A stretch of 64,000 bases of DNA from Sandaracinaceae bacterium (GCA_020633055.1 JACKEJ010000017.1:80760-144759), one strand, 5' to 3'. Counted from the stretch's first letter, positions 16,376-64,000 are shown. Translations and numbers: made by a program. Notes: generated by a model from the letters alone, not told the origin.

Positions 16376-16475
16376 CGGGGGGGAGGGGGAGGCCGCTGCG
16401 ATGCGGCAGCCGGCGGGTGGATCCTTAAGCCAAGACGCCCCAGGGATGTGGTCCTGGGGCGTCTCATGGCGGCGG

Positions 16476-16547
16476 AGGCGCCGACCGGATTCGAACCGGT
16501 GTGTGACGGTTTTGCAAACCGTTGCCTAACCACTTGGCTACGGCGCC
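16476..16547 (-). tRNA. tRNA-Cys (anticodon GCA)
   Basis: Hand-folded cloverleaf. Acceptor stem GGCGCCG/CGGCGCC, T-arm GGTTCGAATCC, anticodon stem ACGGT/ACCGT with loop TTGCAAA, discriminator U. CCA is not encoded. Confidence 0.9.
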
Positions 16548-20984: not shown

Positions 20985-21415
20985 GCGGGGACGGCAAGCG
21001 GCACGTGGTGTCGGTGGAGCTCGAGGTGCCCTTCCATGACGTGGACTCCCTGAACATCGTCTGGCACGGGCACTACTACAAGTACGTGGAGATCGCGCGC
21101 ACGGCGCTCATGCGCAGCGTGCAGCTCGACAACGACCAGCTGCGCGCCCTGGGGTGTGGGCTGGTGATGGGCGAGACGCAGTGCAAGCACACGGGCGTTC
21201 TGCGCTACGGGGACCGCTTCCGCGTGGACGCGTGGTTCAAGGATGTATCTCAGCGGCTGTGCATCGCCTACGAGGTGCGCAACCTGACGTCCGGCAAGCG
21301 CGCAGCTCGGGCGCGCACGGTGCTGGTCACCCTCAACGGGCGCGGGGAGCTCAACCTGGCCACGCCGCCCGAGGTGGTGGCGCGCATCGAGGCGGTTACA
21401 GGCCCCATCGGCTGA
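20981..21415 (+). CDS. 4HBT (YbgC/FadM-like) acyl-CoA/ACP thioesterase
   Basis: ATG at 20981 overlaps the GT2 stop (ATGA). 'VELEVPFHDVDSLNIVWHGHYYKYVEIAR' is a hotdog-fold thioesterase N-terminus. Confidence 0.8.
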   Translation: MSGDGKRHVVSVELEVPFHDVDSLNIVWHGHYYKYVEIARTALMRSVQLDNDQLRALGCGLVMGETQCKHTGVLRYGDRFRVDAWFKDVSQRLCIAYEVRNLTSGKRAARARTVLVTLNGRGELNLATPPEVVARIEAVTGPIG

Positions 21416-21560
21416 GGCGCGCCGGGCCGGCCGGCCGCAGGTGTCCGTGGTGGAGGTGGGCGCGCCACCCACCAGACTCGACGCTGGCTCGGGTGGAAAC
21501 CGAGCCGCTGCCCCGCAGCGATGCGAAGACACACGGGCACGGGCCGCGGCGCGGTAGGGT

Positions 21561-21917
21561 GTGGCCGTCATGAGCAAACGACGGCACGAGGTCCCCACAG
21601 GAGCCGCCGAGTACCCGAGCTACTACGACGTGGTGCGCCAGATCCCAAAGGGCAAGGTGCTGACCTATGGAGATGTGGCACGCCTCGCGGGTCGCCCAGG
21701 CAGCGCGCGGCGGGTGGGCTACGCGCTCGCGGCCCTCACCGACCCAACGGTCCCTTGGTGGCGGGTGGTCAACGCGCGCGGCGAGGTCAGCGAGCGCTCG
21801 GGGGACTTCCTGGGCGCAGCCCAGGTGGAGCAGCGGGTCTGCCTCGCCCGAGAGGGGATCGTGTTCGACGCACAGGGCCGCCTGGCGCTCGGCACCTATC
21901 GCGCCGGAGCCTGGTAG
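21561..21917 (+). CDS. MGMT-family DNA-binding domain protein (alkyltransferase-like, no PCHR Cys motif)
   Basis: 'IPKGKVLTYGDVARLAG...ARRVGYAL' and 'VPWWRVVNARG', where active alkyltransferases carry PCHRV. Confidence 0.75.
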   Translation: MAVMSKRRHEVPTGAAEYPSYYDVVRQIPKGKVLTYGDVARLAGRPGSARRVGYALAALTDPTVPWWRVVNARGEVSERSGDFLGAAQVEQRVCLAREGIVFDAQGRLALGTYRAGAW

Positions 21918-22140
21918 CGATCGCAGGAATTCGTCCGCGACGAGGGCGCGCCGTGGTACGAGTCAGGGAACACCCACCCAGAGGCGTTCAGGTCTGATGG
22001 ACTCTGAAGCGATTCGGCCAGCCGAGCGAGCCCATGATCCCGCGGGACCCCCCCAGCGCGGGGTCCCAGAACGAGCGGTCCAGCAGGAGCACCGCGGCAC
22101 GCGCCTGCGCCTACCACGCGTGTACGGCGCATTCGGCTCG

Positions 22141-37800: not shown

Positions 37801-37921
37801 GGAGGTGTTGTCGTTCGCCCCTGCCGTCGGCGTCACGGTGGACGCGTGCGTGGTCGCTCCTGCACAGCGGGAGCTGCCCGCCCCTCCGCCCGAGCCCACT
37901 CCTGCGACGCCTCGCCCATAG
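34889..37921 (+). CDS. Polytopic membrane protein with a sulfatase-like domain and HEAT repeats, paralogue of 13028-16375 (1010 aa)
   Basis: ATG at 34889 overlaps the recG TGA (ATGA). Hydrophobic N-terminus. 'LLITVDALRADRL', 'TADHGEEFGDHGGLYHGSTLYEEQVRVPL'. HEAT-like 'DTRATVRAGTARLLGRL', 'AAATALGMLGDRRAVGPL'. Confidence 0.85.
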   Translation: MTASEPPRGPTWAPRVLLAGVLVSALDIGLAVATPTWSLFLGQAERHTFVALALTAGVGGAAACYALGHALARVAPDAEGRARLLCVIVFALATVVLYLLTSGRRVHDSPLRVPLVSLVAAIPAFTVLKLGARFDARARAGGSATLALGVLALALAAGVADAFLLRRLYPVFHGTLAALVLVFVSVATWLAPLRDRRSSPRLLAVLVGVALLGLPMAVWRALSAPNVAFVVAEYTGVSGRTLQLAERLLTFANTRGDATDDLTGPRQGDAASEMDAPDLRTGLRLTSRNVLLITVDALRADRLRSPRHATPQLDALADESAVFERAYTPTPHTSYALSSLLTGKYLRPVLDLPGAPSTHVALPELLRRYGMRTAAFYPPAIFFVDAHRFEALREARFGFEYQKEMFAPAHRRVRQLREYLQSLEQEGGGERDVFAWVHLFEPHEPYDPDPRFARGDSAEERYDAEVAAADDAIGDLVRVFRRYRPGATVIVTADHGEEFGDHGGLYHGSTLYEEQVRVPLLWSTPELVHPFESHAPVELVDIATTILAALGIPRDARMRGDDLGPLLVHQEGGPRYAFAEVGDARMVTDGLYKAICATESTACQLYDLTRDPGERRNVAHSHPEVLARLRGALSGFVASIPDVEAMAMAGSQAWPEALARAELGDASVAPELMPLLGDTRATVRAGTARLLGRLRHLPALHTLIRIRDQDDDQAVRDEAALASLALGDEGSSGLVRALVSRPDTSLELRRRGALVLAARGDRAGASVLDAWAADASAEEGERRSAVLALGALRAAASLDTLVTLLSDVRLGPAAATALGMLGDRRAVGPLRRKLRDERYLPARAAEARALTELGDRAVIPLLWRYLGMEQPVPGGVALLGQLGVLRRPSGRGLVLGDAPGARVGEWVCAEEGCEPRTDARVVLPSSGAPRGAVRVVCAVRSEREAVLTLLDVRREVQAGSSQVTVDATGPLEVLSFAPAVGVTVDACVVAPAQRELPAPPPEPTPATPRP

Positions 37922-38083
37922 CCGGGTGTCGTCTCATGCGACGCGCGCGCCCTCGTCACCGCTACACCATGGCGTGGCAGCGTCTTGCAGGGCGTCGTGC
38001 GCTTCTGACCCCAATGCCCGCCCGCCCGCCTGCACCGACGCCTAGAGCTCAGCGCGTGGCCGCGGGAGGGCGGCGGGGCCCAG

Positions 38084-38899
38084 TCAGTCCACGAACGCCC
38101 CACGGTATCGGTCGATCTCGCCAGCGACCACCCCCGGCGCAGCGGCGAGGTCGTCCTCGGAGATGACCAGCGGGTCGGCTCCCGCTCGCTCGACGACCAA
38201 CGACGTCACGCGGTGAGCCCCCCGTAGTGTGTCCCAGCCAGCTCGCTCGGCGAGGGCGACCTCGCGGACATCCCGCCAGGCAGCGCTGCGCGCACCTCGC
38301 GCATCACGGACGATGAGCGCCTCGGGCGTGAGCACCAACGCCACCCCGCGCCGCGCCCGCCAGGTCGCACGGCCTCGCAGCCAGAAGAGCGCGAGGGGAG
38401 CGCACGCGAGCGCCGTCGCGCCGAGCGTCCAGGGGGCACGGAGCAGCGGGACCGCCAGCGCGTGGACGCCGAGCAAGACCCCGAACACGACCCCTGCGTA
38501 CGGAGCGCGCCACCACGCCCCCCGTCCGCTCGGAACGATGCGGCAGTCAGGGTGGCGCCCGGGGTCGTCCACGACGTCGTCGAAGCGCTGCGCGGGCGGG
38601 ACGCGCATGCGTGGCGCGTCGGGCGGGGCCCCCCGCTCCGCAGTCGTGCTCGGTGCGAGCTGGTCGACAGGGGTCGTCTCCCTCAGCGTCGTCGCCATGA
38701 GGCGCGCACGGCGCCGCACGGCCAGGGAGGCGCCAACCCGCACTAGCGCCAGGGAGGCCGCAAAGTGGAGGCCGAGGGACAGCGCGTCGACCGGCGCGCC
38801 CTGAGCGACACGCGCCACGGACGTGCCGGCGCAAAGCAGCAGCACCGCGAGCGCGCTCAGGGGAGGCGCTTGGTCACTGGGCGTCGGCACACTGGGCAT
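38084..38899 (-). CDS. Hypothetical membrane protein with a C-terminal bacterial PH-like region
   Basis: Several hydrophobic helices. C-terminal 'LVLTPEALIVRDARGARSAAWRDVREVAL'. Start uncertain (ORF extends to 39013). Confidence 0.5.
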   Translation of the reverse strand: MPSVPTPSDQAPPLSALAVLLLCAGTSVARVAQGAPVDALSLGLHFAASLALVRVGASLAVRRRARLMATTLRETTPVDQLAPSTTAERGAPPDAPRMRVPPAQRFDDVVDDPGRHPDCRIVPSGRGAWWRAPYAGVVFGVLLGVHALAVPLLRAPWTLGATALACAPLALFWLRGRATWRARRGVALVLTPEALIVRDARGARSAAWRDVREVALAERAGWDTLRGAHRVTSLVVERAGADPLVISEDDLAAAPGVVAGEIDRYRGAFVD

Positions 38900-41860: not shown

Positions 41861-42811
41861 GTGGCACACCTCGACTTCGAGAAACCGCTGGTGGAGTTGG
41901 AGCGGCGCATCCAGGAGCTGCGTGCGGCGGCAGGACCAGGCGATGACGTCTCCGCCGAGGTCAACGCGCTCCTGTCCCACGCACAGAGCCTTCAGCGCGA
42001 GCTGTACGCAGAGCTCAGCGAGTGGCAGAAGGTCCAGCTCAGCCGGCACCCCGAGCGGCCGTACTTCCTGGACTACTTGGGGGCCATCTTCGACGACTTC
42101 CTGGAGCTGCACGGGGACCGCGCGTTCTCGGACGACCCAGCCATCGTCAGCGGCTTCGCGCGCCTCGATGGGCGGGCCGTCGCCGTCATCGGCCACCAGA
42201 AGGGGCGCACCACGAAGGAGAAGGTGCGTCGCAACTTCGGTATGGCCCACCCCGAGGGGTACCGAAAGGCGGTGCGCATCATGGAGCTGGCGGGTCGCTT
42301 CGGCCGCCCCGTGTTCACGTTCATCGACACCCCCGGGGCCTATCCCGGGATCGGCGCCGAGGAGCGCGGGCAAGGCGAGGCGATCGGCCAAGCGCTGCTC
42401 AGCATGTCGAGGTTGCCCGTGCCCGTGGTGGCCACGGTCATCGGGGAGGGGGGGTCGGGTGGCGCGCTGGGTCTCGGCGTGGCCAACCGCGTCCTCATGC
42501 TCGAGTACGCCACCTACAGTGTCATCACGCCGGAGGGCTGCGCGTCCATCCTCTGGCGAGACGGGGCCGAGGCACCCAAGGCGGCCGAGCAATTGAAGCT
42601 GCTCGCTTCGCACGCGCTGAAGAACGGCATTGTCGACGAGCTCGTCCGAGAGCCGCCAGGCGGGGCCCATCGCGACCCCACACAAGCCGCCCAAGCGCTG
42701 GGCGAGGCGCTGCGCCAGCATCTCGCGGAGCTGGACGGGCTGCCGGGACCAGAGCTCGTCGCGCAGCGCTACGCACGCTTCCGTGGCATCGGTCCCGTCG
42801 TCGGCGCGTGA
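41861..42811 (+). CDS. accA: Acetyl-CoA carboxylase carboxyltransferase subunit alpha
   Basis: GTG start. 'LDFEKPLVELERRIQELR', 'RHPERPYFLDY', 'FIDTPGAYPGIGAEERGQGEAI', 'IGEGGSGGALG'. Confidence 0.95.
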   Translation: MAHLDFEKPLVELERRIQELRAAAGPGDDVSAEVNALLSHAQSLQRELYAELSEWQKVQLSRHPERPYFLDYLGAIFDDFLELHGDRAFSDDPAIVSGFARLDGRAVAVIGHQKGRTTKEKVRRNFGMAHPEGYRKAVRIMELAGRFGRPVFTFIDTPGAYPGIGAEERGQGEAIGQALLSMSRLPVPVVATVIGEGGSGGALGLGVANRVLMLEYATYSVITPEGCASILWRDGAEAPKAAEQLKLLASHALKNGIVDELVREPPGGAHRDPTQAAQALGEALRQHLAELDGLPGPELVAQRYARFRGIGPVVGA

Positions 42812-42879
42812 CGGGCGCGCAGCCTGCGGCCCGATGTGCCGCCGCGCTTTTTTGACGGGCCCGGCGCGCAGTCCTTACG

Positions 42880-43935
42880 ATGTCTCCCAGGTGGCCCGGC
42901 GGCTGCCTCGGGATCAACGTGACTCGACTTCTCGCACTTGCGCTCCTCCTCGCGCTCGGCACTGGCTGCGGCGCCACCTCTGCTCGGCGTGGTGGGACCG
43001 TGCCCGACGGTGCGGACGCGCAGATTGCCGAGCTGGAGGAGGCGCGGCGACAGCAGGACGAAGAGATTCGTGCCCTGCGTAGCGAGCTCGCGCTTGCCCG
43101 CAGCGAGGCCGAGTCTCTGCGGACGGCCCAGGCGACCCAGCGCGTAGCGACCATCAGCATCCGGGCGAATGGTGCCGCGGCCGATGACGGGGCTGTGCCC
43201 TCTCAGTTCTCCGGCAGCAGCGACACCGACGGCGGCGCAGCGTGGATCGAGCCCGACGCCGGCGAGGTGGTCGTCGACGAGACCCCTCGTGGGGATGGTC
43301 CGCGTCCAGTTCTGCGCGTGCGTGGCGTTCCGAGCGCCGACATCCCGACCACGGTCATCCCGGAGGGGGCGGCGCCACCAGGCTTCGCGCCGAGCGCCGA
43401 GCGCGCACCGCTGCCGACCACGCAGGGACCGGAGGTCCCCGTGCCGCCGATTCCCGTGAACCCGCCGAGCGCCCCCCCGCCGTCATTTGGCGCGCCGCTC
43501 CCGGCGACCGTCGCGGCGGGTGGAGCCCTCACCCCAGTCGCGCCCGAGCCGCGCGTGCAGGCTCCCGACGTCGCCGTCGTCTCGTACCGGGCGGCGCTCG
43601 GGATGCTCCGAGACCGCGAATACGCGCAGGCGGTCGAGGGCTTCGACTCCTTCCTGGCGACCCACGCCCAGCATCCTTACGCGGCCAATGCGCGCTACTG
43701 GCGCGCGGAGGCTCTCTACGCACAGCGACGATACCGCGACGCCCTCCACGCGTTCGAGGTGTTCGTGCAGCGTCACGGCGGCCACTCGAAGGTCGCGGAC
43801 GCGCTGCTCAAGATGGGTCTGTGCCACGCTCGCAGCGGCGACACAGGTCGCGCCAGGGCTCTGTTTCAGCGGGTGCAGCAGGAGTACCCGGACACCGTCG
43901 CGGCGCGCATCGCATCGCGGGAGGAAGCGTCATGA
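42880..43935 (+). CDS. YbgF/CpoB-like Tol-Pal-associated TPR lipoprotein (coiled-coil N-terminus, Pro-rich linker, C-terminal TPR)
   Basis: 'LLALALLLALGTGCG' lipobox. Coiled coil 'QIAELEEARRQQDEEIRALRSELA'. C-terminal 'YRAALGMLRDREYAQAVEGFDSFLATHAQHPYAANARYWRAEALYAQRRY...ALLKMGLC'. Confidence 0.75.
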   Translation: MSPRWPGGCLGINVTRLLALALLLALGTGCGATSARRGGTVPDGADAQIAELEEARRQQDEEIRALRSELALARSEAESLRTAQATQRVATISIRANGAAADDGAVPSQFSGSSDTDGGAAWIEPDAGEVVVDETPRGDGPRPVLRVRGVPSADIPTTVIPEGAAPPGFAPSAERAPLPTTQGPEVPVPPIPVNPPSAPPPSFGAPLPATVAAGGALTPVAPEPRVQAPDVAVVSYRAALGMLRDREYAQAVEGFDSFLATHAQHPYAANARYWRAEALYAQRRYRDALHAFEVFVQRHGGHSKVADALLKMGLCHARSGDTGRARALFQRVQQEYPDTVAARIASREEAS

Positions 43936-47105: not shown

Positions 47106-50100
47106 TCAGGTGCCGTTCCGCACCTGGAGCGTGTAGGGCGTGCAGGTTGGGGCCAACGACTGAGCGCGGTGCACGTGGATGAAGAACGTCCGGCTCGGCG
47201 CGCTGTTGCAGGCCGTCCCGTTGCTGCCCGCTGGCGCGCACTCCGTGGTGCGTTCGTTGGCGTTCAAGTCGTACTGCGTGATGTTGCGAGGCTGGCCACT
47301 CGTGCCCAAGCAGGAGGTGCCGGCGCGGCCCGTGTGCTGGGCGAGCGTCGAGCAGTCGTTCTGGTACACGTCGAACACCACGTCGCTGCTGACGGTTCCT
47401 GTGAACGTCACCTGCGGGCGGTAGCCCTCAGTCGCCGAGTTGTTCATGACCACCCGGTACCAGTCGCCATCGGCCATGAGATCGAGGTTGCCCGTGATGG
47501 TGCCGGACATCCCCTCGGTGAGGGTGTACTGGATGGCAGCCGACGTCGCCGCCGCGCAGCTGTTCACCGAGATGCTCTCGGGCAAGCACTCACAACCGTC
47601 GGAGGCCGTGGAGTTCGCGTCCAGGTAGCCGTTCGTGCACGAGGCGACCTGACACCCGCTCATGCCGCCGCACGACTCGTTCGCGTTGGGGAGGTTGCAC
47701 AGGGCCACCGCTCCGTCGTCCACCATGCCGTCACAGTCGTTGTCCAGACCGTCGCAGATGTCGTTCGGGTTGTAGCTCGGGTGCGAGCTGGGGATCGGGC
47801 AGTTCTGGGGTACGCCGCCCATACAGCGTGCGAGGCTCTGCGTGCAGACGCCCAGGTTGCATGTCTGGTTGGCCGGGCTCGGCGTGACCGAGTTACACAC
47901 GGGCGCGACCTGGTTCACGCACGTCGACGTGTTCTTGGCCTGACACAGGTTGTCACAGTCGAGGACCATCGTGCTGGGTGGCTGCGCGGGACAGACCTGC
48001 GGCGCCCCCTCACATCCGCCGGCACCGTTGCAGTCCACGGCCGTGGCCGGCGCGTTCTGTGCTGTGAAGCACTGGTCCGAGTTGGTTCCGCCCCAGCCCG
48101 AGAACCAGCCCGTGCAGGGCACCATCCCGCACTCGTTGATGGGGTCCTGGCCCGCAGGGATGGGGGAGCAGGTGCCCACGTTGCCGGCGACGTTGCAGGC
48201 CATGCACAGGCCGCCGCAGGAGTTGTTGCAGCACACGCCGTCTGCGCACGCGAGGCCGCCCGCGCAGTCCGACGTGATGGAGCACGTCTGACCCTGCGTG
48301 CGGAGGGGCTGACAGATGCCCATGCCACAGAACGCGCCCGCGTCGCACTGCGAGCTGTTGGTGCAGGAAGACGGGCACATCGGCGCCGTCTGCGAGACCG
48401 CCCCGTTGCACATCAGGTTGGTGTAGTTGCCGCACCCGTTGGCGAGGGTGCCGGACGTGCACGCGCTGTCGTCCGGGACGTTGGCGGTCGTGCTGCACTG
48501 CTTGGCGGCGGTGCAGACGGCGTCGTCGCGCGTGCCCTGGCAGGTCGACGGTGAGTCGCAGGCGGGGGCGCTGCCATAGCCGCCACAGTCGCTGGCGGTG
48601 GAGCAGCAGTCCCCGGTCGCGCAGCAGAAGCCGTTCTGGCAGTGGTTGCTCATGCACTGGCTGTTCGCGCTGCAGGCGTCGCCGTTGGCGCCGTCCGACA
48701 CGCACATGCCGCCCATGCAGTTCGCGCTGGTGTCGCACTGCGAGTCGTTCGTGCAGCTGGTGCCACACGCCGGCGCAGACTGTGTCGCCGACCCGTTGCA
48801 GAAGCGGTCGGCGTACGTTCCGCAGGCGTTCGCGAGGGTCCCCGCCGTACACGCGCTGTCGTCGTCGATCTCGGGCGACATGCTGCAGACGAAGCCGCTG
48901 CAGACCGCGTCGTTACGGTGACCGTCGCACGCGGCGGCGGTGTCGCAGACGGGGGCCACCGTGAACATGGCGGCCGGACACTCGGCGGCCGACGAACAGC
49001 AGACACCGCCCGAGCAGCAGCGGTTGTTGCTGCAGTGACCGGAGACGCAGTCCGAGGGCTCGTCGCACGTGCTGCCGTCCGCGAGGTCTGGTGTGCACAG
49101 GTTGGAGTCGCAGTGCGCGTTCGCGTCGCAGTCTCCATCGGCGGAGCACATGGCCGAGCAAGCCGGGGCCATCTGGTCCGCCGCGCCGTTGCAGAACACG
49201 GTCGGGTAGGGGCCGCACAGGTTCGCCACCGTCACCGCCGAGCAGGCCGTGTCGTCCGGCACGTTGGGCACCGTGGCGCAGGAGAAGGCCACGCAAGCGG
49301 CGTCGTCGCGCGTGCCCTGGCACATCGCGGCGTTGTCGCAGGCCGGGCTCCGGCGGAAGGATCCCGGACAGTCCGTCGCGGTGGAGCAGCAGGTGCCGCC
49401 CGAGCAACAGAAGCCGTTGTTGCAGATGCCGCTGGTGCACGCCGCGGCGCCCAGCCCGCTGCACGACCCACCGTCCGGTAGGTCGGGCACGCACAGGCCA
49501 CCGCTGCAGTGAGCGTCCACGTCGCAGTCGCCGTTGCCACTGCAGCTGCTGCCGCACACCGGGGCCACCTGCGACGCGAGGCCGTTGCAGAACCGGCTGG
49601 GGTAGGGACCACAGGAGCTCGCCAAGACGCCTGCGTTGCAGGCCGTGTCGTCGGGGACGTTGGTGGTGGTGCCGCAGATGTTGCCTGCGCACACCGCATC
49701 GGAGCGGGAGCCCTGACACGTCGCCGGATCACTACAGAGCGGCGCGGACCGGTAGCTCGCGGGGCAGTTGCTCGCGGTCGAGCAGCAGTCGCCGCTCGCG
49801 CAACAGCGGTCGTTCTGGCAGTGACCCGAGATGCAGTCGGACGCCTCGTCGCAGGAGTTGCCGTCCGTCAGGTCGGGGAGGCACAGGCCGCCGTCGCAGT
49901 GAGCGTTCGCGTCGCAGTCCGCGTCGGTCGTACACCCCGTGCTGCACGTGGGCGGCGCCTGCACCGGCTGCCCGTTGCACGTCACGCTCGGGAAGAAACC
50001 ACAGGTGTTCGCGACCACCAGGTTGTCGCAAGCGCTGTCGTCCTCGACGCCGGAGATGGTTCCGCACTGGTTCGACGCGCTGCAGGTCGCGTTCGAGCGC

Positions 50101-52514
50101 GTGCCCTGGCAGGTCGCGGCCGTGTTGCACACGGGCGCGGTGCTGTAGCTCGCCGGACAGTTGGCCGCGGTCGAGCAGCAGTCGCCTGTCGCGCAGCAGA
50201 ACCCGTTGGCGCAGTGACCCGCGATGCAGTCCGAGTCCTCGTCGCAGCTCGAGCCGTTGGGCAGGTCCGCGACGCACGTGGTGTCGCAGTGCGCCGACGC
50301 GATGCACTCGCTGTCCTGTGTGCACGCAGCCGCGCACACCGGGGGCACCTGGGTCTCGGTCCCGGTGCAGTACTGAGGTGGGTTCAGGTCGCAGTCGAGG
50401 GCCATGGAACCGGCCGTGCAGCCGCGGTCGTCGTCGATGGGTGCCGTCGTGCCACACTGGTTGTTGCTACACGTCGCGTCCGTGCGGGGGCCCTGACACG
50501 TCGACTGCGTGGTGCACGTCGCCGCCGAACGGTAGCTGGCGGGGCAGTTCGTGGGCGTCGCGCAGCAGTCGCCGGACGCGCAGCAGAAGCCGTTCATGCA
50601 GTGCGACGACGTGCAGTCCGAGTTCTCGTCACACACCTCGCCGTTGGCGACGTCCAAGAGACACTGGCCGTTGTCGCAGTGGGCGTTCGCGTCGCAGTCG
50701 CCGTCCACGGTGCAGGACGTGGCGCACACGGGCGCCGTCTGGTCGACCGCGCCGTTGCACGTGACGGACGGGTACGTGCCGCAGTTGCTCGACACGCTGG
50801 ACGTGTTGCAGCCGGAGTCGTCCGGGACACCCGCGACCGTGCCGCACTGCGACATGGTGCAGGTGGCGTCCGACCGGGTGCCCTGACACGTCGTGGTGTT
50901 GCCGCATGCGCTGGGCGACCGGAAGCTGGCCGGGCAGTTGGCCGCCGTCGAGCAGCACACGCCGGACGCACAGCAGTACCCGTTCTGACAGTGCCCTGCG
51001 ACACAGTCCGAGTCCTCGTCGCACACTCCACCGTCCGGAATGTTGGGGATGCACACGCTGTCGCAGTGGGAGCCCATGTCGCACTGGCTGTCCAGCGTGC
51101 AGGTCGAGCCGCAGGGGGGGCGAGTTTGGGTGGGCATGCCATTGCAGAACACCGAGGGGAAGGACGCGCAGGTGTCGGCGACGGTCATGGTCCCGCAGCC
51201 CGTGTCGTCCTGGATGCCCGCCATGGTGCCGCACACGTTCGCGACGCAGGTCGCGTCGGAGCGCGTGCCCTGACAGGTTGCCGCGTCCGTGCACACCGAC
51301 GCCGAGCTGTACGATGCGGGGCACTGAGAAGCCATCGCGCAGCAGTCGCCGCCGGAGCAGCAGAAGTTGTTCTGGCAGTGCGACGACGTGCAGTCCGAGT
51401 TCTCGTCGCACGCGTTGCCGTCCGGGAGGTCGAGCAGGCACAGGTTGTTGTCACAGTGGGCGTTGGCGTCGCAGTCTGCGTCGACATTGCACGACGTCGC
51501 GCAGGACGGCGCGGTCTGGTCGGTCGTGCCCGCACAGAACACGGACGGGTACGGACCGCAGTTGCTGGCCTCGATGCTGCTGGTGCAGCCCGAGTCGTTC
51601 GGCGCCCCGTTGAGCGCCACGCACTGGAAGTCCGCTCCGCAGCTCACGGAACCGATCGTTCCCTGGCACATGGGCCGGTCGCTGCAGATCACGCCGACGC
51701 CTGGGTAGCCAGGGCAGTTCGAGTCCTGCGCGCAGCACGTCCCGCCCGAGCAACAGAACCCGTTCTCGCAGTGGTTCGTTCGGCAGTCGCTGTCGACGGT
51801 GCATGCGCTGCCGTCGGGGAGGTCGTCCACACAGACGCCCGCGTCGCAGTGCGCGGACTCGATGCACAGGTCGTCGTTCTCGACGCCGTTCACCTCGCAG
51901 CTGCCGGCGCAGACGTCGCCGTTCTCCATGCCGCCGATGCACGTGTAGCGCCCACAGCTCGTCACCGTGACTTGCTCACACGTCCCGTTCGAGCAAGCCG
52001 CGCCAGGCGAGGACTCGTAGCGGGTCCCGTTGAAGCGACAGCCCTGCTGCACGCAGTCGATGGGCATGTTGTCGGCGAGCGTGTCGCAGTCGTCGTCGTC
52101 CCCGTTGCACAGCTCGTCCGCGTCCGGGTGCACCAGCTCGTCCGCGTCGTTGCAGTCCGGCCCGTCGCAGAACACGCCTTCGCCGTAGCCGTCGTCATCC
52201 TCGTCGATGCAGCAGCCCTCCGTCGGGAGGCAGTAGTAGCGGCCGGGGCGCGTGGCGAGCTCCGCGGCCTCGAACGTGCGCGGGCAGATCGCGAACTCGT
52301 TGGCCACGCGCTCGAGGCAGAGGGTCGCTTCCCCGAAGGGCACACACTCGGATCCCTCGGGGCACTGGTCGTCCGCCACGCACTCTTGACAGAGCCCCGT
52401 CTGAGGGCCGGAGTCCACCCCAGCGTCGGCGCCCATGTCGGTCCCCCCGCCCATGTCGGAACCCGCGTCTTCCTCCCCTCCCGCATCCGGGTCGGGGGGT
52501 GCCCCTTTGTGCAC
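47106..52514 (-). CDS. Giant Cys-rich repeat protein (1802 aa from the GTG at 52514) with no in-frame signal peptide
   Basis: Uninterrupted 5.4-kb ORF with about nine tandem ~130-aa modules of ~20 Cys each. MopE-like 'CDGxDxDCD' motifs near both ends ('CNGDDDDCD', 'DICDGLDNDCDGMVDDG'). C-terminal PPC-like domain ('GDWYRVV'). Confidence 0.85.
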   Translation of the reverse strand: MHKGAPPDPDAGGEEDAGSDMGGGTDMGADAGVDSGPQTGLCQECVADDQCPEGSECVPFGEATLCLERVANEFAICPRTFEAAELATRPGRYYCLPTEGCCIDEDDDGYGEGVFCDGPDCNDADELVHPDADELCNGDDDDCDTLADNMPIDCVQQGCRFNGTRYESSPGAACSNGTCEQVTVTSCGRYTCIGGMENGDVCAGSCEVNGVENDDLCIESAHCDAGVCVDDLPDGSACTVDSDCRTNHCENGFCCSGGTCCAQDSNCPGYPGVGVICSDRPMCQGTIGSVSCGADFQCVALNGAPNDSGCTSSIEASNCGPYPSVFCAGTTDQTAPSCATSCNVDADCDANAHCDNNLCLLDLPDGNACDENSDCTSSHCQNNFCCSGGDCCAMASQCPASYSSASVCTDAATCQGTRSDATCVANVCGTMAGIQDDTGCGTMTVADTCASFPSVFCNGMPTQTRPPCGSTCTLDSQCDMGSHCDSVCIPNIPDGGVCDEDSDCVAGHCQNGYCCASGVCCSTAANCPASFRSPSACGNTTTCQGTRSDATCTMSQCGTVAGVPDDSGCNTSSVSSNCGTYPSVTCNGAVDQTAPVCATSCTVDGDCDANAHCDNGQCLLDVANGEVCDENSDCTSSHCMNGFCCASGDCCATPTNCPASYRSAATCTTQSTCQGPRTDATCSNNQCGTTAPIDDDRGCTAGSMALDCDLNPPQYCTGTETQVPPVCAAACTQDSECIASAHCDTTCVADLPNGSSCDEDSDCIAGHCANGFCCATGDCCSTAANCPASYSTAPVCNTAATCQGTRSNATCSASNQCGTISGVEDDSACDNLVVANTCGFFPSVTCNGQPVQAPPTCSTGCTTDADCDANAHCDGGLCLPDLTDGNSCDEASDCISGHCQNDRCCASGDCCSTASNCPASYRSAPLCSDPATCQGSRSDAVCAGNICGTTTNVPDDTACNAGVLASSCGPYPSRFCNGLASQVAPVCGSSCSGNGDCDVDAHCSGGLCVPDLPDGGSCSGLGAAACTSGICNNGFCCSGGTCCSTATDCPGSFRRSPACDNAAMCQGTRDDAACVAFSCATVPNVPDDTACSAVTVANLCGPYPTVFCNGAADQMAPACSAMCSADGDCDANAHCDSNLCTPDLADGSTCDEPSDCVSGHCSNNRCCSGGVCCSSAAECPAAMFTVAPVCDTAAACDGHRNDAVCSGFVCSMSPEIDDDSACTAGTLANACGTYADRFCNGSATQSAPACGTSCTNDSQCDTSANCMGGMCVSDGANGDACSANSQCMSNHCQNGFCCATGDCCSTASDCGGYGSAPACDSPSTCQGTRDDAVCTAAKQCSTTANVPDDSACTSGTLANGCGNYTNLMCNGAVSQTAPMCPSSCTNSSQCDAGAFCGMGICQPLRTQGQTCSITSDCAGGLACADGVCCNNSCGGLCMACNVAGNVGTCSPIPAGQDPINECGMVPCTGWFSGWGGTNSDQCFTAQNAPATAVDCNGAGGCEGAPQVCPAQPPSTMVLDCDNLCQAKNTSTCVNQVAPVCNSVTPSPANQTCNLGVCTQSLARCMGGVPQNCPIPSSHPSYNPNDICDGLDNDCDGMVDDGAVALCNLPNANESCGGMSGCQVASCTNGYLDANSTASDGCECLPESISVNSCAAATSAAIQYTLTEGMSGTITGNLDLMADGDWYRVVMNNSATEGYRPQVTFTGTVSSDVVFDVYQNDCSTLAQHTGRAGTSCLGTSGQPRNITQYDLNANERTTECAPAGSNGTACNSAPSRTFFIHVHRAQSLAPTCTPYTLQVRNGT
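48360..51908 (-). repeat. Intragenic tandem array of about nine copies of a ~390-nt (~130-aa) Cys-rich module, plus a degenerate tenth
   Basis: The anchor motif 'AHCD' (variants SHCD, AHCS, ANCM) recurs at residues 221, 352, 482, 611, 741, 871, 1001, 1133 and 1264. Shared pattern: SC..D.DCD.NAHCD..C..DL.DG..CDE.SDC.SGHC.NGFCC..GDCC....NCPASY....C....TCQGTR.DA.C....CGT.....DD..C.......CG.YPS..CNG...Q..P.C. Confidence 0.8.
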
Positions 52515-52587
52515 ATGCGGAGAACAGCGTCGCGAATAAAGCGAGGGTGAGGAGGGTTTGGAAGAGCGGTGTGCTTGGCTTACGCAT
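52513..52587 (-). other. Lipoprotein signal peptide ('MRKPSTPLFQTLLTLALFATLFSAC') in a different frame from the giant ORF it abuts
   Basis: ATG at 52587 preceded by GAGAGG. The n/h-regions plus lipobox LFSAC end exactly where the giant ORF's first possible start (52514) lies. After the Cys codon this frame decays into Arg/Gly-rich shadow sequence until 52195. Confidence 0.6.
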
Positions 52588-52672
52588 AGGTGCGCCTCTC
52601 AAAAAGCGAACGACCCCGCCACTGTACCAGTGTTGCGCTGGTTTGTAACGATCCCCTTTCCAATGCGACGCG

Positions 52673-52693
52673 TTTTGGCACCGGGTGCCAAAA
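52673..52693. repeat. Perfect palindrome TTTTGGCAC-CGG-GTGCCAAAA between the NTF2-like gene and the giant lipoprotein gene
   Basis: Read directly from the sequence. 9-bp arms and a 3-nt loop, 21 nt after the stop at 52714 and about 85 nt upstream of the ATG at 52587 (both genes on the - strand). Confidence 0.5.
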
Positions 52694-52713
52694 TTGGCGC
52701 TGGCGGCACCTGA

Positions 52714-53472
52714 TCAGCGTTCGTGTCGGTTGCCCCGGCCCCAGAAGGCCCGCATGGAGCTGAAAAGTCCGTCGTCATCGAACCGCATCACGTCGATGAC
52801 CTCCAGCGCCAGCGATCGTCCCCCGAGATCGAGCTCGACGCGGAACGGCACGGCCGCCACCCCCGGCGACACGACTGGGGGGCCGAGCAGCTGCGTCCCG
52901 GTGATAGCGGCCAGACCGCTCTCGTAGAATTTCTCCACGGCGGCGCGGCCGGCGTGGATCGGGGTGCCGACGGGGTCCTCCACATCGCACGCCGATCCGA
53001 AGAGCTGGAGCACGGCCTGTGCGTCGCCTCTCCCCACGTGCTCCACGTAGCGCTGGAGCGCGTCCGCCTCCGAGCCGCTCTGAGGCGCAGCGGCGCCCAC
53101 ACCGCCTACCGTGAGCCACGTCCCGACACGGCCTGTCGCGTCCACGTCGATGACGTCGATGCGCGCCGCGCGGGATCCATCACTGGTCTCAGCCGCATCG
53201 GCGAGCCCCTCTTGGCAGACGTACGCGACCTCCGTGCCGCGCGTCACGCGGAGCGGCCCTTCCTGCGTGAGACGAGTCGCCCTCTTGCCCAGCGACGCGA
53301 GGATGGCTTCACGGCCCTTGGCCTCGCTCCCATCAGGCTGACGCCAGACCGCGTCCGCTCGGAGCGCGTCGGCGACCCTGGCGAGGTCGTGAGAGTCGAG
53401 GGCGGCCACGAAGCGGGCGGCGACGAGCGCGCGATCGACCGCCTGGGCGCTCCCCGAGCCCGGCGAGCTCAC
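52714..53472 (-). CDS. Tandem NTF2/SnoaL-like (ketosteroid-isomerase-fold) domain protein
   Basis: GTG at 53472 overlaps the dksA-family stop (GTGA). Two ~115-aa halves, each with the SnoaL-like layout ('ALVAARFVAALDSHDLARVADALRADAVW', 'LQRYVEHVGRGDAQAVLQLFGSACDVEDPVG'). Confidence 0.6.
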   Translation of the reverse strand: MSSPGSGSAQAVDRALVAARFVAALDSHDLARVADALRADAVWRQPDGSEAKGREAILASLGKRATRLTQEGPLRVTRGTEVAYVCQEGLADAAETSDGSRAARIDVIDVDATGRVGTWLTVGGVGAAAPQSGSEADALQRYVEHVGRGDAQAVLQLFGSACDVEDPVGTPIHAGRAAVEKFYESGLAAITGTQLLGPPVVSPGVAAVPFRVELDLGGRSLALEVIDVMRFDDDGLFSSMRAFWGRGNRHER

Positions 53473-53831
53473 GTGAAGTCTCGCTCTTGACGCTCCTGGT
53501 CTTCCTTGCAGCGGATACACAGCTCGGTCTCGGGGCGGGCCTCGAGGCGCTTGACCGAGATCGGTTCTTCGCACTCGACGCACATGCCGTACTCGTCCGT
53601 GTCCATCTTCTTCAGCGCGACGTCGATCTTCTGGAGCAGGACGCGCTCACGGCCGCGCAGACGGAGCGTGAACGACTGCATGTACTCGCTGCTGGCCAGA
53701 TCCATCTCGTCGGGGAGCTCGTTCACGTCGAGCGCCATGTCGTTCTCCATGGTCTCCCGGGCGCGACGGATGACGCTCTCGCGCTTCTCTTCGAGGATCT
53801 TGCGCAGGCGGTTGATTTCGCTCTTCTTCAT
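53469..53831 (-). CDS. DksA/TraR-family C4 zinc-finger regulator
   Basis: ATG at 53831. 'YGMCVECEEPISVKRLEARPETELCIRC' is the C4 finger, preceded by a coiled-coil region with acidic-tip-like 'DEMDLASS'. Confidence 0.88.
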   Translation of the reverse strand: MKKSEINRLRKILEEKRESVIRRARETMENDMALDVNELPDEMDLASSEYMQSFTLRLRGRERVLLQKIDVALKKMDTDEYGMCVECEEPISVKRLEARPETELCIRCKEDQERQERDFT

Positions 53832-58595: not shown

Positions 58596-59575
58596 CAGCC
58601 CAGCAAGCCTCCGCGGCGGAGCACGCCCAGCACCGCCTCGTCGAAGGGGGTGCTGGTCTCGATGGCCTGGTAGGCCACGTGCTTCTGGGTGCAGAAGTCC
58701 TCGATGCGTTTGCGGTAGGCCGCGTGCGCCTCGGCGTACTTCTCGAGCAGGCGCGGCGTGATGGTCACCTCGCGGTGCTCGCCCGTCTCGCGGTCCACCA
58801 GGCGCACGTCGCCGTTGAGCTCGGGGCGCACCTCGGCCGGGTCGAAGACCTGCAGCACGAAGGGCTCGAACTTGGCGAAGCGCAGCTGGTTGATGCCCGC
58901 CTCGAAGCCCGCCGGGTCGTACAGGTCGCTGATCAGGATGGCGACCCCGCGGCGCTTGTTCTGTGCCGCGAAGGTGCGCAGCGCGTCGCCCATGTGGGTC
59001 TCGCCCTTCGCCTGCACGTCGCGCAGGAAGTCGAAGACCTTGAAGATGCGGTTCTTGCCGCGCGTGGGCGCGAGTCGGGCGCTCATGCCCGCGTCGAACG
59101 TGAGCACGGACACGCGGTCCAGGTTGGCCAGCGCCACGTAGGCGAAGGCCGCTGCGAGCTGCTTGGCGTAGGTGAGCTTCGGTGGGTCGCCCATGCCCAT
59201 GGAGCGTGAGGCGTCCACCAGCACGTACACCGAGAGGTCTTCCTCTTCCTCGAACAGGCGCAGCAGCAGGCGCCCGGTGCGCTGGTAGACGTTCCAGTCC
59301 AGGTAGCGGAAGTCGTCACCCGGCACGTACTCGCGGTGGTCCGCGAACTCGATGCCCGCGCCAGTCTTCTTGGAGCGGCGCTCGGCGCGCATGCGCCCGT
59401 TGTAGATGCGGCGTGACACGATCGCGAGGTACTCCAAGCGGCGCTGGAACTCCTCGTCGAAGAGCTCCGCGTCGCCGCTCGGGGCCTTGCGCGCGCGGGC
59501 CTTCGCGCCCGTCTTGGACGCGGACACCGCGCTCGCGCCGCCGCCGGACACTCGCTGTCGGAACCAGCTCAGCAC
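58595..59575 (-). CDS. DUF58-family protein (MoxR-associated)
   Basis: 'GAGIEFADHREYVPGDDFRYLDWN' is the DUF58 signature. Start assigned to the GTG at 59575, just after the MoxR stop. The longer ORF (to 59656) overlaps MoxR. Confidence 0.8.
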   Translation of the reverse strand: MLSWFRQRVSGGGASAVSASKTGAKARARKAPSGDAELFDEEFQRRLEYLAIVSRRIYNGRMRAERRSKKTGAGIEFADHREYVPGDDFRYLDWNVYQRTGRLLLRLFEEEEDLSVYVLVDASRSMGMGDPPKLTYAKQLAAAFAYVALANLDRVSVLTFDAGMSARLAPTRGKNRIFKVFDFLRDVQAKGETHMGDALRTFAAQNKRRGVAILISDLYDPAGFEAGINQLRFAKFEPFVLQVFDPAEVRPELNGDVRLVDRETGEHREVTITPRLLEKYAEAHAAYRKRIEDFCTQKHVAYQAIETSTPFDEAVLGVLRRGGLLG

Positions 59576-59582
59576 GCTGGGG

Positions 59583-60577
<995 letters not shown>

Positions 60578-60581
<4 letters not shown>

Positions 60582-62788
60582 GGGGTCGTCTCCTGCGCGC
60601 CTGCTGCGCCAGCGCTGGGGGCGTCCGCCGCGTCGCGCGGCCGGATCAGTTGGAAGTAGCGTCGCACGTAGAAGCGGTAGCCGGGCGGGACTTCGTCGCG
60701 CTCGAGCACCTCTTCGGCGTGGTTGGAGTAGTCGGTGTGAACGGAGCGGTAGCCGCGCCCCACGAAGCCGCGCTCGGCCGCGCCCAGGATGACCTCGCTG
60801 CGCGAGGGGCCGTCGCCGTGCTGCCCCTCGACGCGCGAGTCGCGCGTGTTCCCGTTGAGCCGCGTGGGGTCGTCGCTGAGCATCTCGCCGCCGCTCTCGG
60901 ACCCCGCGCCAGGGCCCATGCCACCGCCTTGGCCCTGGCCCTCGCTCTCCCCTTGGCCCTGGCCCTCGCCCATCCCGGGGAGCTCGAGCGTGGCGTTGCC
61001 GCCGCCCTGGCCGGACGGGTCGAGCGTGAGCTCCATGTCGCCCTGACCCTGGCCCTGGCCTTGACCTTGGCCCGAGCCGCCCGGCTGACCGCCCTGACCT
61101 TGGCCCTGGCCCTGACCTTGGCCCTGACCTTGGCCCTGACCTTGGCCCTGGCCCTGACCCTGCTGGCCCTGGCCCTGACCAGGCCCTTGACCCCCTTGGC
61201 CCTGGCCCTGGCCCTGCTGGCCTTGGCCCTGACCCTGGCCCTGGCCCTGCTGACCCTGACCCTGCTGCCCATCGCCGGGCATGCGGATGCGCACCTGCTG
61301 CCCGCCTTCGCCAGCCGCGCCCAGCCGGAAGCGCTGCATCATCCCCTCGCGCCCCTGGCCCTGACCTTGTTGGCCCTGCTGACCTTGCTGGCCCTGCTGG
61401 CCCTGGTCGCCGTTCTGCTGCTGTTGCTCACGCGCCCGGCGGATCATCTCGCGCAGCTGCTCCATCTGGCGCTGCAGCTCGCGGCGCTGCTCTTCGCTCA
61501 TCTGCTCGCGCGCCATGCGGTTGAGGTCCTCGGCCATCTGCTGCATGCGCTGCGCCGCCTCGTCGCGGGCGTTGCGGTTGAGGTCCTGCGCGGCCTGGTC
61601 CATCTCGCGCCGCAGCCGGTCCAGCTGACGGCGACGCTCCTCCATGGCCGCCTGGTCGCGCTGCAAGGTCTCCAGCTCGCGCTGGCGCCGACGGAGCAGG
61701 CTCTCCTCTTGTTCGTCCAGCCCCTGCTCGCGCTGGCGCTGCAGCAGGCTCTCCATCTCTTCACGCTGCTCGTCGAGGCGGCGCTCCAGCTCCTCGCGGT
61801 CGCGCTGGCTGTTGTCGCGGGCCGCACGCTCCATGGCCTGGCGCAGGCGCTCCAGCTCGCTGCGGGAGATGCTCTCGGTGCTCACGCGTTCGGCCAGCTG
61901 CTGCATGGCGTCTGCCGCGGCCTCCGCGTTGGCTTCGCGCATGGCCTCCGAGGCAGCCTCCGTAAGCCCCTGGCGTGGCAGCTCGTTGCCGAGCTCCCGC
62001 AGCGCGTCGTCCAGCGCTTCGGCCTCCATGGGCCGCGCCTCCGCCAACCTGGTCTCCAGCTCGCGCAGCTCGCGTAGGGCCTCGGTGCGGTCCAGGTCAC
62101 GGTCGGCGAGGCGCTCCAACACGTCGTTGAAGTCGCGCGCCGCGTCGCGCAGCGCTTCGTCGGTGTCGGGGTCGTCCAACATGGGACGCAGCGCGCTCTC
62201 GAAGGCGTCCAAGTCGTCCGGGTGGACCAGCATCGCGTTCTGTTGCGTGATGGGCGGAGCGGGCGCGCGTCCGAGCACCTCGAGCTGCGCGACGACCAGC
62301 ACGACCATGGCGAGAGCCAGGCCCACGGGCCAGTCCTGCGGGACGCGCAGCGGCATGGCGCGGGCGGGCTCCAGAGTTTGTCCACGCTGGGAGGCGTCCG
62401 CGATGGCGGCGTCCATGAACGCGCTGCGCTCCGCGTCGGGGAGGGCCGAGAACTCGAGGGCGCTCGCGACCCGGCTGTCGAGCGCGTGGGCGCGATCCAA
62501 GAGCTGCGCCGCATGCAGGGGGGGGACCGGCCGGAGGGCGCCCAAGAGCGCACCCAGCACGGGGAGCACCGCGCACCCCAGCAGCCAAGGCAGCGCGTCT
62601 GCGTGCGTCATCGCGTGCGTCTTCACACCCGCGATGACCAGCGCCGCTCCCGCGAGCCCCACCACCACGAAGAGCGTCATGGTTTCCATGGCACGCCGGG
62701 TGCGGACACGGCGTCGCACGGCCGCCACCGCCCGGGCCAGTTCGGCCGGGAGTGTGGCGCTCATCGCACGTCCCTCGCGCGCGTCCAT
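60578..62788 (-). CDS. Membrane protein with a long Arg/Glu/Gln-rich coiled coil, a (GQ)n low-complexity tract and a conserved-looking C-terminus (736 aa)
   Basis: N-terminal TM helices ('MTLFVVVGLAGAALVIAGV', 'LPWLLGCAVLPVLGALLGAL'). Coiled coil over roughly aa 225-455. GQ tract roughly aa 455-625. C-terminal 'VPPGYRFYVRRYFQLI'. ATGA overlap with the MoxR start. Confidence 0.75.
61040..61275. repeat. Hexanucleotide (GGYCAG/CTGRCC-type) microsatellite encoding the (Gly-Gln)n core
   Basis: The + strand reads '...ggccctggccctgaccttggccctgaccttggccctgacc...' for more than 200 nt. Weaker copies extend over about 60914-61426. Confidence 0.8.
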
Positions 62789-63083
62789 GGGGCCGACGAG
62801 ACCTCGGGGCCGGGGGCTGGACTGGGAGGCGGCGCGAACGGGCGTGGCATGCTGAGTGGACCGTGCCGGGCGGGGAAAGTTCCCTGGGGGCGGAGCGGAA
62901 GGGCACTATAGCCCACCGCGCACCGCTTGATCCGATGAACGCGCGGGCGCGCGAGATCTTCCCCATGGACGCTCGGGGTCGACAGGCGCGCGCAGGTGCG
63001 CATCCCCTCGAGCGGGGAGGAACGCATGCGGTGCGGTATGGAGGAGGCCAGCAGGGCGAGCGCGCGCCGACGAGCGCGTCGGC

Positions 63084-64000
63084 TCAGCCCATCGCAAGAG
63101 GGAAGGGCGTGCGCGCCACGCCTGGCACGTCGAACAGCGGCAGGCATTGCACGAGCGCCCCCGCCGGGACGGTTTCCTCTCCGGCGGGGATGCGGGCCAG
63201 CACGTCCACCCCCGCGAGCGCGGGCAAGGCCCCCGAGCCTCGCCGCGCCACGGGGACACAGCCCAGCCCGCTCGGGGACGTGGCGTCTTCCGTCAGCCGC
63301 GCTCGCAGCAGCTCGTCGCGTCCACGGGTGGCCTTGACCGCACTCGCGAGCTTGGCCGCGAGGTGTCGACGGTGGGGGCGGGGGTCTCCGGCGAGCACGC
63401 GCAGCAGGGGGCGCACCAGGACCTCGAAGGTGACGAACGCGCTGACGGGGTTCCCTGGCAGGCCGGCGACCGCGCTGCCGTGTGGAGCGCGTCCGAACGC
63501 GAAGGGCTTGCCTGGTTTGATGGCGACCTTCCAGAAGTCCATGGAGACACCCGCAGCGCCGAGCGCGTCACGCATCAGGTCGTGGTCTCCGACGGACACG
63601 CCGCCGGTGGAGATCACCAGGTCGGACGTCGCGCACGCTTCGCGCACGCTCGCCGTCAGCGTCGGGAGGGTGTCCGAGACGATCGGGCGCACGTCTGGAG
63701 TACCCCCTGCGTCCAGCACCAGCGCCTCCAGCATGTACGCGTTCGAGTTGACGATGCTCCCCGGGCGCTCGGGCTCGTCGAGGCGACGGAGCTCGTCCCC
63801 CGTGGAGAGGATGGCGACGCGTGGACGCCGGTAGACCTCCACCTCCCCGATGCCCTGGCTGGCCAACAGCCCGATGTCTCCCGCGCGGAGCCGCGCGCCA
63901 CGGGGGAGCAGGATGCCGCCGACCGCGACGTCTTCGCCGCGCTGACGCACGTTCTGCCCCTGGCGTGCCGGATCGCGAAACACCGCCACGTGTCCTTCAT
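63084..64000 (-). CDS. moeA: Molybdopterin molybdenumtransferase MoeA, C-terminal ~300 aa (5' end outside the window)
   Basis: 'RVAILSTGDEL', 'IVNSNAYML', 'DLVISTGGVSVGDHDLM', 'VAIKPGKPFAFG', 'GLPGNPVSAFVTFEVLVRP'. Confidence 0.9.
   Translation of the reverse strand, partial: EGHVAVFRDPARQGQNVRQRGEDVAVGGILLPRGARLRAGDIGLLASQGIGEVEVYRRPRVAILSTGDELRRLDEPERPGSIVNSNAYMLEALVLDAGGTPDVRPIVSDTLPTLTASVREACATSDLVISTGGVSVGDHDLMRDALGAAGVSMDFWKVAIKPGKPFAFGRAPHGSAVAGLPGNPVSAFVTFEVLVRPLLRVLAGDPRPHRRHLAAKLASAVKATRGRDELLRARLTEDATSPSGLGCVPVARRGSGALPALAGVDVLARIPAGEETVPAGALVQCLPLFDVPGVARTPFPLAMG

Follow-up and report, generated by a model that had tools for sequence, protein, structure and literature searches.

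A single-base insertion, probably young, separates a lipoprotein leader from its giant Cys-rich protein in an uncultured myxobacterium

A gene for a giant Cys-rich surface lipoprotein in an uncultured wastewater myxobacterium carries one extra base between its signal peptide and its mature protein. The gene lies on the minus strand of a 64,000-nt stretch of DNA from Sandaracinaceae bacterium (GCA_020633055.1 JACKEJ010000017.1:80760-144759), hereafter the window, whose coordinates are used throughout. The extra base, an A, is missing from five orthologous loci of sister species, where leader and body form a single reading frame, and is present in every examined assembly of the species itself. 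We regard it as a real and young 1-nt insertion that splits the gene, and the resulting allele as probably one of lost function, that is, a nascent pseudogene.

An earlier note, made from the window's sequence, had proposed that the leader is part of the giant protein, severed from it by a 1-nt change within ~10 nt after the lipobox Cys, and the fused orthologues bear this out. It had offered three origins for the change. A recent inactivating frameshift is the best supported, although its description as phase-variation-like does not hold; an assembly indel and programmed +1 recoding of the Ty1 type are not sustained.

Leader and body lie in different frames

The leader opens at ATG 52587 (Table 1) and follows the PROSITE PS51257-type lipobox pattern, applied as a pattern rule: LALFATLFSAC, with the lipobox Cys at residue 25. 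Its n-region starts MRK, with two K/R among the first seven residues, and its maximum Kyte-Doolittle(11) hydropathy (KD) is 2.44. The charged n-region, hydrophobic h-region and Cys at 15–35 that mark a lipoprotein precursor are found both here and in the orthologue leaders, which read MRLAST..LFGGL[VLM]SAC. In the orthologous loci L001, L004, L005, L088 and L089 the mature protein follows the lipobox Cys in frame, whereas in the window the body lies at +1.

The earliest possible start of the giant open reading frame (ORF) is GTG 52514, which overlaps the lipobox Cys codon. The N-terminus read from there, VHKGAPPDPDAGGEEDAGSD, contains no hydrophobic segment (maximum KD 0.15), and a TGA 87 nt upstream closes the frame, so that no alternative leader is possible there; both observations support the break as favoured here. 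Past the Cys, GC content at third codon positions (GC3) in the leader frame stays at ~0.5, a non-coding level in a genome of 70.4% GC, and in the giant frame GC3 rises to 0.8–1.0 from ~52485 onward. The leader-frame tail has no Pfam or NCBIfam match. The earlier note had correctly recognized the signal-less ORF, the leader with its Shine-Dalgarno (SD) sequence, the overlap of Cys codon and GTG (read directly), the Arg/Gly-rich continuation and the upstream TGA, which it placed at ~90 nt. The juxtaposition of leader and giant ORF is not a matter of chance, because the same leader is kept in the orthologues of other species.

Translated as it stands, the gene would yield two unconnected parts. 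Ribosomes starting from the SD and ATG 52587 would make the signal peptide followed by 105 out-of-frame Arg/Gly-rich residues, and the 1802-codon body would be left without an export signal, uncoupling export from the protein. A strongly basic tail directly after a signal peptide is unfavourable for export.

Orthologues hold the leader and body in one frame

Homologues were sought with a protein search using the hypothetical fused N-terminus, which is not exhaustive for so repetitive a query (it missed a 100%-identical entry), with a genome-collection scan, which supplied L004 and L005, and with a protein-guided scan of metagenome contigs, which supplied L088 and L089 and returned other species only. 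Each of the five orthologous loci, which come from sister species within the Sandaracinaceae, has leader and body fused in one frame with a common junction, …SAC-AQ-GAP…, and the two-frame layout of the window was not found among them. The earlier note had called for this alignment.

The closest protein match, L001, lies on a syntenic contig of the Sandaracinaceae metagenome-assembled genome (MAG) GCA_016714965.1, with the gene order MoxR, DUF58, BatA, VWA, DksA/TraR, SnoaL-like, giant gene and GAF histidine kinase. Its leader ATG (L001:9737) is in frame with the body (…LVSACAQGAPEDID; …LVSAC-AQ-GAPEDID…). Further downstream, L001 has an in-frame TAG at L001:9995-9997 where the window has GAG, and frameshifts within L001:10300-15200 split the gene into at least five called fragments. 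These in-gene breaks probably reflect long-read assembly errors in a poor-quality MAG, and GCA_016714965.1 by itself could not have decided the frame question.

Two other orthologues have intact ORFs. L004, from HK-STAS-MYXO-29, encodes 1770 aa with the junction …LLSACAQGAPDD (MRLASTTTIRTLITLTLFGGLLSACAQGAPDD…), and L005, from another Sandaracinaceae MAG, encodes 1766 aa with the junction …LMSACAEGSPED…. The window body aligns with L004 in a single frame at 73% identity over 1718 aa and with L005 at 72%, and the DksA-SnoaL-giant synteny is confirmed in L001, L004 and L005. Among more distant homologous loci, a strict heuristic finds an in-frame lipobox leader in 63 of 80, and most of the others have one by eye. 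Homologues named 'putative metal-binding motif-containing protein' occur in Sandaracinaceae, Nannocystaceae and other Myxococcota, several with lipoprotein leaders, and lipoproteins of the family, ~800–1800 aa long, are widespread in Polyangia and Bradymonadia. From the in-frame orthologues and these distant homologues it follows that the ancestral state, and the general one, is a single gene in one frame.

The inserted base lies in a short A run

For each orthologue, the pairwise and five-species DNA alignments call for one gap and no more, 1 nt long, at CA[A]AGG. The window's CAAAGGGGCACC, written with the gap as CA[A]AGGGGCACC, is matched by C-AAGGCGCACC in L001, C-AGGGCGCACC in L004 and G-AGGGCTCCCC in L005/L089. 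The earlier placement of the shift was thus right, and the alignment narrows it to the AAA run, two codons past the lipobox Cys. Removing one A restores CAQGAPPDPD, where orthologues read CAQGAPEDID or CAQGAPDDEPD; if a G or C is removed, the result is CAQRAPP… or CAQRGTP…, a poorer match to the orthologues. The best match is obtained by removing an A, and the inserted base is therefore an A at 52508-52506. The AGG codon that had drawn attention earlier is a product of the insertion itself.

Since the orthologues are in frame, the alignments show the insertion to be derived. The best reading is that it is also young and lineage-specific, because no decay is seen as yet in the leader, the SD, the upstream block or anywhere in the 5.4-kb body. 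The gene's frame is disrupted relative to intact orthologues, as in frameshift pseudogenes.

Four assemblies share the extra base

Three further assemblies of the species, GCA_041389585.1, GCA_020430805.1 and an ENA scaffold that derives from another sample, carry the same junction string, CAAAGGGGCACCCCCC. The first (L084/L086) differs from the window by 60 substitutions over 17.3 kb, with 9/9/27-nt repeat-copy differences as the only indels, and is identical at the site. The relevant contig of the second (L087) begins at window 52529 and reads gcacaaaggggcacccccc (…gcacaaaggggcaccccccgac…). The ENA scaffold (L123) runs through the SnoaL gene, intergenic region and leader and across the junction. 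Pairwise single-nucleotide polymorphisms (SNPs) among the three NCBI assemblies number 2–30 per 7.5–11 kb with zero single-base indels, and no 1-nt indel separates the compared assemblies over 7.5–17 kb. A metagenome DNA pattern permitting any tract length at the junction gave no match. In the literature, the assembly accessions were not found, and of the sample identifiers only PRJNA432264, to which we take SAMN08389256 to belong, was matched, in papers that follow activated sludge in Hong Kong over time.

We assign a minimal probability to the reading that the true genome has AA and an intact gene, with the third A a sequencing or assembly artefact. The window does come from a MAG (locus tags H6726_), which we take to belong to a long-read/short-read hybrid assembly series, and the related long-read MAG that holds L001 is full of frameshifts in this gene. 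The same base nevertheless recurs in four assemblies that trace to three or more NCBI/ENA records and include short-contig assemblies typical of short reads, and these have distinct SNP profiles with no 1-nt indels among them. The run is just 3 nt long, and the 1802-codon body is free of any further disruption despite a G7 run at 51114. On these comparisons random error is excluded as the cause of the extra A, and it is very unlikely that different assemblies share a systematic error in a run of 3 nt. The assembly-indel option of the earlier note is therefore rejected.

Two features of the compared contigs were recorded alongside. L123:1-2663 is 100% identical to the window from ~53800 to 52319 and ~87% identical from 54982 to 53800; either the scaffold is a metagenome chimera or the step marks a breakpoint of recombination close to where the DksA gene starts. 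In GCA_020430805.1 one contig (L085) ends at 52719 and the next (L087) starts at 52529, a gap that takes in the intergenic region and most of the leader. This break was considered as a sign of allele heterogeneity, but its offset of 21–23 nt from the A run does not fit usual k-mer sizes and no conclusion was drawn from it.

The giant body and its annotation

Cys accounts for 241 of the 1802 residues (13.4%), with a periodicity of 130 aa and ~17 Cys per repeat. The Cys-rich 130-aa units described earlier are thus present, at a density somewhat below the 'about 20' per unit first given. The ancestral mature body starts at GGG 52505-52503, and the reconstructed fused precursor has 1826 aa. As judged from the sequence, the ancestral product is best explained as a ~1826-aa lipoprotein consisting of a Sec/signal peptidase II (SPII) signal peptide, the lipobox Cys, an acidic Gly/Asp/Pro tether and about ten 130-aa Cys-rich repeats.

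Pfam, NCBIfam and PDB sequence searches returned no curated family for the giant protein, the matches being sub-threshold only: DUF7107, Dickkopf_N-like Cys-rich modules and a MopE-type 'putative metal-binding motif'. PF11617 (Cu-binding_MopE) scores 21.1 bits against the window protein, below the cut-off of 27, whereas the homologues P0002, P0004, P0007 and P0009 carry precomputed PF11617. With the MopE-like Cys-rich lipoproteins of Myxococcota, the window protein shares the lipoprotein leader and, N- and C-terminally, the motif CxDxDxDGYGxGxxCxGxDCxD; it differs from them in its sub-threshold score and in a 130-aa repeat that belongs to no curated family.

Public annotation begins inside the gene. 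The product of window:47106-52454 is 100% identical to MCB9662323.1 (P0029, H6726_32085, Sandaracinaceae bacterium). MCB9662323.1, MEZ4328756.1 and MCA9575975.1 are each annotated as an intact 1782-aa hypothetical protein, and in all three the frameshift and the upstream leader are unflagged. Gene callers all start internally, at ATG 52454 (also in L084/L086/L087) or at a GTG in L123, as is to be expected if the break is real.

Signals upstream of the leader

An SD-like GAGAGG, invariant across the aligned species, precedes the leader ATG. Further upstream, a nearly invariant block (52606..52650) contains TTACAA-N16-TACAGT, read by eye, and may represent a promoter/5'-untranslated-region-like element. 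A consensus sigma-70 promoter and terminator scan of 52400-52800 made no calls, this block included.

In the interval from the stop of the SnoaL-like gene (52714) to the leader ATG, window 52673-52693 holds a perfect inverted repeat, TTTTGGCACC/CGGTGCCAAAA in minus-strand reading, within a 17-nt stretch that is missing from four orthologous intergenic regions. It may form a terminator-like hairpin, or it may have arisen as a small insertion; the terminator scan did not call it.

Table 1. Features at the leader–body junction, in window coordinates
Feature	Position	Strand	Basis or remark
Upstream block CGTTACAAA..GCGCAAC.CTGGTACA.TGG..GGTCGT.CG	52606..52650	minus	nearly invariant in window, L001, L004, L005 and L089
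TGA closing the giant frame upstream	52599..52601	minus	87 nt 5' of giant ORF
SD-like GAGAGG, 7 nt 5' of leader ATG	52595..52600	minus	invariant in all five aligned species
Lipoprotein signal peptide, 25 codons, MRKPSTPLFQTLLTLALFATLFSAC	52513..52587	minus	ORF read from ATG 52587-52585
Lipobox Cys codon TGT	52515-52513	minus	leader frame
Giant Cys-rich repeat protein body, 1802 codons from GTG 52514	47106..52514	minus	frame +1 relative to leader
Out-of-frame leader continuation, 105 aa, Arg/Gly-rich	52195..52512	minus	stop 52197-52195; R+K = 28, G = 22
AAA run with one extra A (AA to AAA), frameshifting insertion	52506..52508	minus	pairwise and five-species DNA alignments
CAA-AGG-G, leader-frame context made by the insertion, candidate +1 slippage site 1	52503..52509	minus	AGG rarity
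C6 run (52499-52494), leader frame ACC-CCC-CGA, candidate +1 slippage site 2	52492..52499	minus	CCC-C before rare CGA
Internal ATG (Met21 of ORF), annotated start of public 1782-aa 'hypothetical protein'	52452..52454	minus	identity to public entry

Phase variation and separate products

Reversible phase variation, in which slipped-strand mispairing in the A3, G4 and C6 tracts would toggle export of a surface protein, is suggested by a break at the signal-peptide/mature boundary of a large surface protein and by the fact that nearby loss of one G or C restores the frame with at most three residue changes. We nevertheless hold it to be very improbable. The tracts are far below functional contingency tracts, which usually have 7 or more units, and the inserted base lies in a run that went from 2 to 3 nt. 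Tract lengths are identical in the window, L084, L087 and L123, as far as assembly consensus tells, and the orthologues have no homopolymer at the site. Phase variation in signal-peptide coding regions is known from Neisseria, through the (CTCTT)n repeats of opa and the poly-G tract of pilC. There, as here, the coupling of leader and mature frames is the switch point, but the window has neither a long repeat tract nor any observed length variation.

Alternatively, the locus could encode two separate products: the leader ORF would give a small exported lipopeptide, and translation from GTG 52514, ATG 52454 or ATG 52436 would give a giant protein that lacks a signal. Gene callers do accept ATG 52454. 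The leader-frame tail, with its GC3 of ~0.5 and no homologues, argues against this, as do the single gene of the orthologues and the lack of a properly spaced SD before GTG 52514 or ATG 52454. Cytoplasmic folding is not to be expected of a protein with 13% Cys that lacks an export signal, and we give this alternative almost no weight.

Candidate frameshifting sites at the junction

Two candidate +1 slippage sites lie in the leader frame, CAA-AGG-G and, two codons later, the CCC-C before CGA. AGG occurs at 1.06 per 1000 over 17,850 codons of window genes, where it is the ninth rarest sense codon, in line with the rarity the earlier note had expected, and CGA at 3.25 per 1000, so that both sites offer a rare sense codon as a potentially slow A-site codon. 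No in-frame CAA-AGG pair occurs elsewhere in the window genes. On a +1 slip, the P-site tRNA would re-pair from CAA to AAA at 2 of 3 positions and from CCC to CCC perfectly at the C6 run. No SD-like stimulator lies upstream of the shift site, where the sequence is CTGTTCTCCGCATGTGCA, the fold of a 131-nt RNA around the site is less stable than those of shuffled controls (z = +1.33), and Rfam detects nothing at the site.

Conserved programmed +1 recoding of the prfB/Ty1 type, as put forward in the earlier note, is not supported, because the layout is unconserved, no stimulator is present and CAA would not fully re-pair on AAA. The likeness to prfB (CUU-UGA-C) and Ty1 (CUU-AGG-C) is that a potentially slow codon, AGG, would occupy the A site at the point of the required +1 shift. 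Unlike those sites, the window has no orthologue conservation, no P-site codon before AGG that would fully re-pair in the +1 frame, no upstream SD-like stimulator and no regulatory logic.

Adventitious ('savior') frameshifting is a different matter: ribosomes might pause at AGG with CAA in the P site, or at CGA after CCC, slip by +1 and so partly rescue the gene. Besides the two rare codons, precedents in Escherichia coli speak for it. An rpoB +1-nt insertion exposing CCC-AGG-C showed 5% intrinsic suppression with no other signal (Huseby et al. 2020, PMC7022156), CC[C/U]-[C/U] is prone to +1 shifts with up to 1% errors (PMC4519876), and unprogrammed suppression by -1 slippage reaches 1–10% in aggregate (PMC10861913). 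The allele is, moreover, common to four assemblies, with its ORF and expression signals intact. Against rescue stand the uniformly in-frame orthologues, a tRNA-Gln that would keep only 2 of 3 pairs on AAA, the lack of an SD-like element 5' of the site and a local RNA fold weaker than shuffles, and the quoted rates were measured with E. coli reporters, some of them at the second codon, and may not be those of this organism. Taken together, we consider partial rescue unlikely.

The rpoB case is the closest parallel. In both, the insertion brings a rare AGG into frame right after the shift, and a +1 slip would bring back the native frame at the cost of few residue changes or none. In the window, the P-site codon is CAA, which is not slippery, the CCC-C two codons later precedes CGA rather than AGG, the gene is not known to be under selection for an essential function, and slippage is predicted from sequence. 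A slip at CAA-A would yield a lipoprotein identical to the ancestral one, and a slip at CCC-C would yield CAQRGTPDPD…, with RGTP in place of the ancestral GAPP and otherwise identical. Slippage might run at 0.01–5%, possibly sufficient for function and for persistence of the allele. That the frameshifted allele is the functional, population-wide form, giving a low and controlled dose of a costly 1826-aa lipoprotein through a 'savior' +1 slip at CAA-AGG-G or CCC-CGA, is a more doubtful proposition still.

Weighing the loss-of-function reading

A young frameshift that has probably abolished function is the reading we prefer, and unprogrammed +1 slippage would then supply at most a small fraction of full-length lipoprotein. 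The gene resembles young frameshift pseudogenes of other bacterial surface and lipoprotein genes in its single-base indel relative to intact orthologues, its otherwise intact ORF and promoter, and the restart of gene callers at an internal Met. It departs from them in that the break falls exactly between signal peptide and mature protein, leaving a body of 1800 aa that is open and annotated as intact, and in that the allele seems fixed in the sampled population.

Several points weigh against loss of function. There is no second disabling mutation in the 5.4-kb body, and nothing of the conserved leader, SD and upstream block has been lost; an intact body fits a very recent event and continued use equally well. 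The allele, seemingly fixed in four assemblies, appears not to be strongly counter-selected. The insertion itself creates the rare-codon CAA-AGG-G, with the CCC-C/CGA site two codons on, a context comparable to that which gave 5% suppression in rpoB (PMC7022156). Finally, a single SNP, Pro676Thr, distinguishes the assemblies in the 5.4-kb ORF, which leaves no power to detect relaxed selection; the lack of further decay fits this very low locus diversity.

Other features of the window

Six-frame GC3 segmentation was uninformative, as strands were inseparable by GC3, and a codon-usage ORF picker was used instead, giving an ordinary gene map. In this rough map, 650–950 nt lack a confidently scored ORF at 37921-38874, 42811-43555, 21415-22120 and 1998-2656. 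The sole RNA gene detected in the window by Rfam is a tRNA-Cys(GCA) at 16474-16547 on the minus strand.

Upstream of the SnoaL-like gene, a 120-aa DksA/TraR zinc-finger protein (53469-53831, minus) is 98–99% identical to its L001, L004 and L005 orthologues. In the same neighbourhood, the SnoaL-like protein is 52–55% and the giant protein 72–73% identical, so that the conservation of DksA/TraR is unusually strong.

Differences between the window and L084 are unevenly distributed, with 55 SNPs at 58754-63665 against one in 54300-46688, suggesting a recombined patch. A 9-nt-period CAGGGCCAA/GGT (Gln-Gly) repeat at 61100-61410, within the ORF 60578-62689 (minus), differs in copy number from L084 by +9, -9 and +27 nt.

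Significance

The kind of event is ordinary, a frameshifted gene; its position is neat, and the consequence for annotation is small. Three public records show a signal-less protein as intact, whereas the gene in truth begins, with its leader, 130 nt upstream of the ATG chosen in annotation. A break at the leader/mature junction can thus hide a pseudogene from annotation pipelines, and the case illustrates how comparison across several MAGs separates real indels from assembly errors. Should the frameshifted allele prove functional through slippage, it would be a rare natural case of unprogrammed frameshift suppression sustaining a gene and would bear on the origin of programmed +1 sites, as a wild example of the first step from an indel to programmed +1 frameshifting that was proposed from E. 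coli rpoB.

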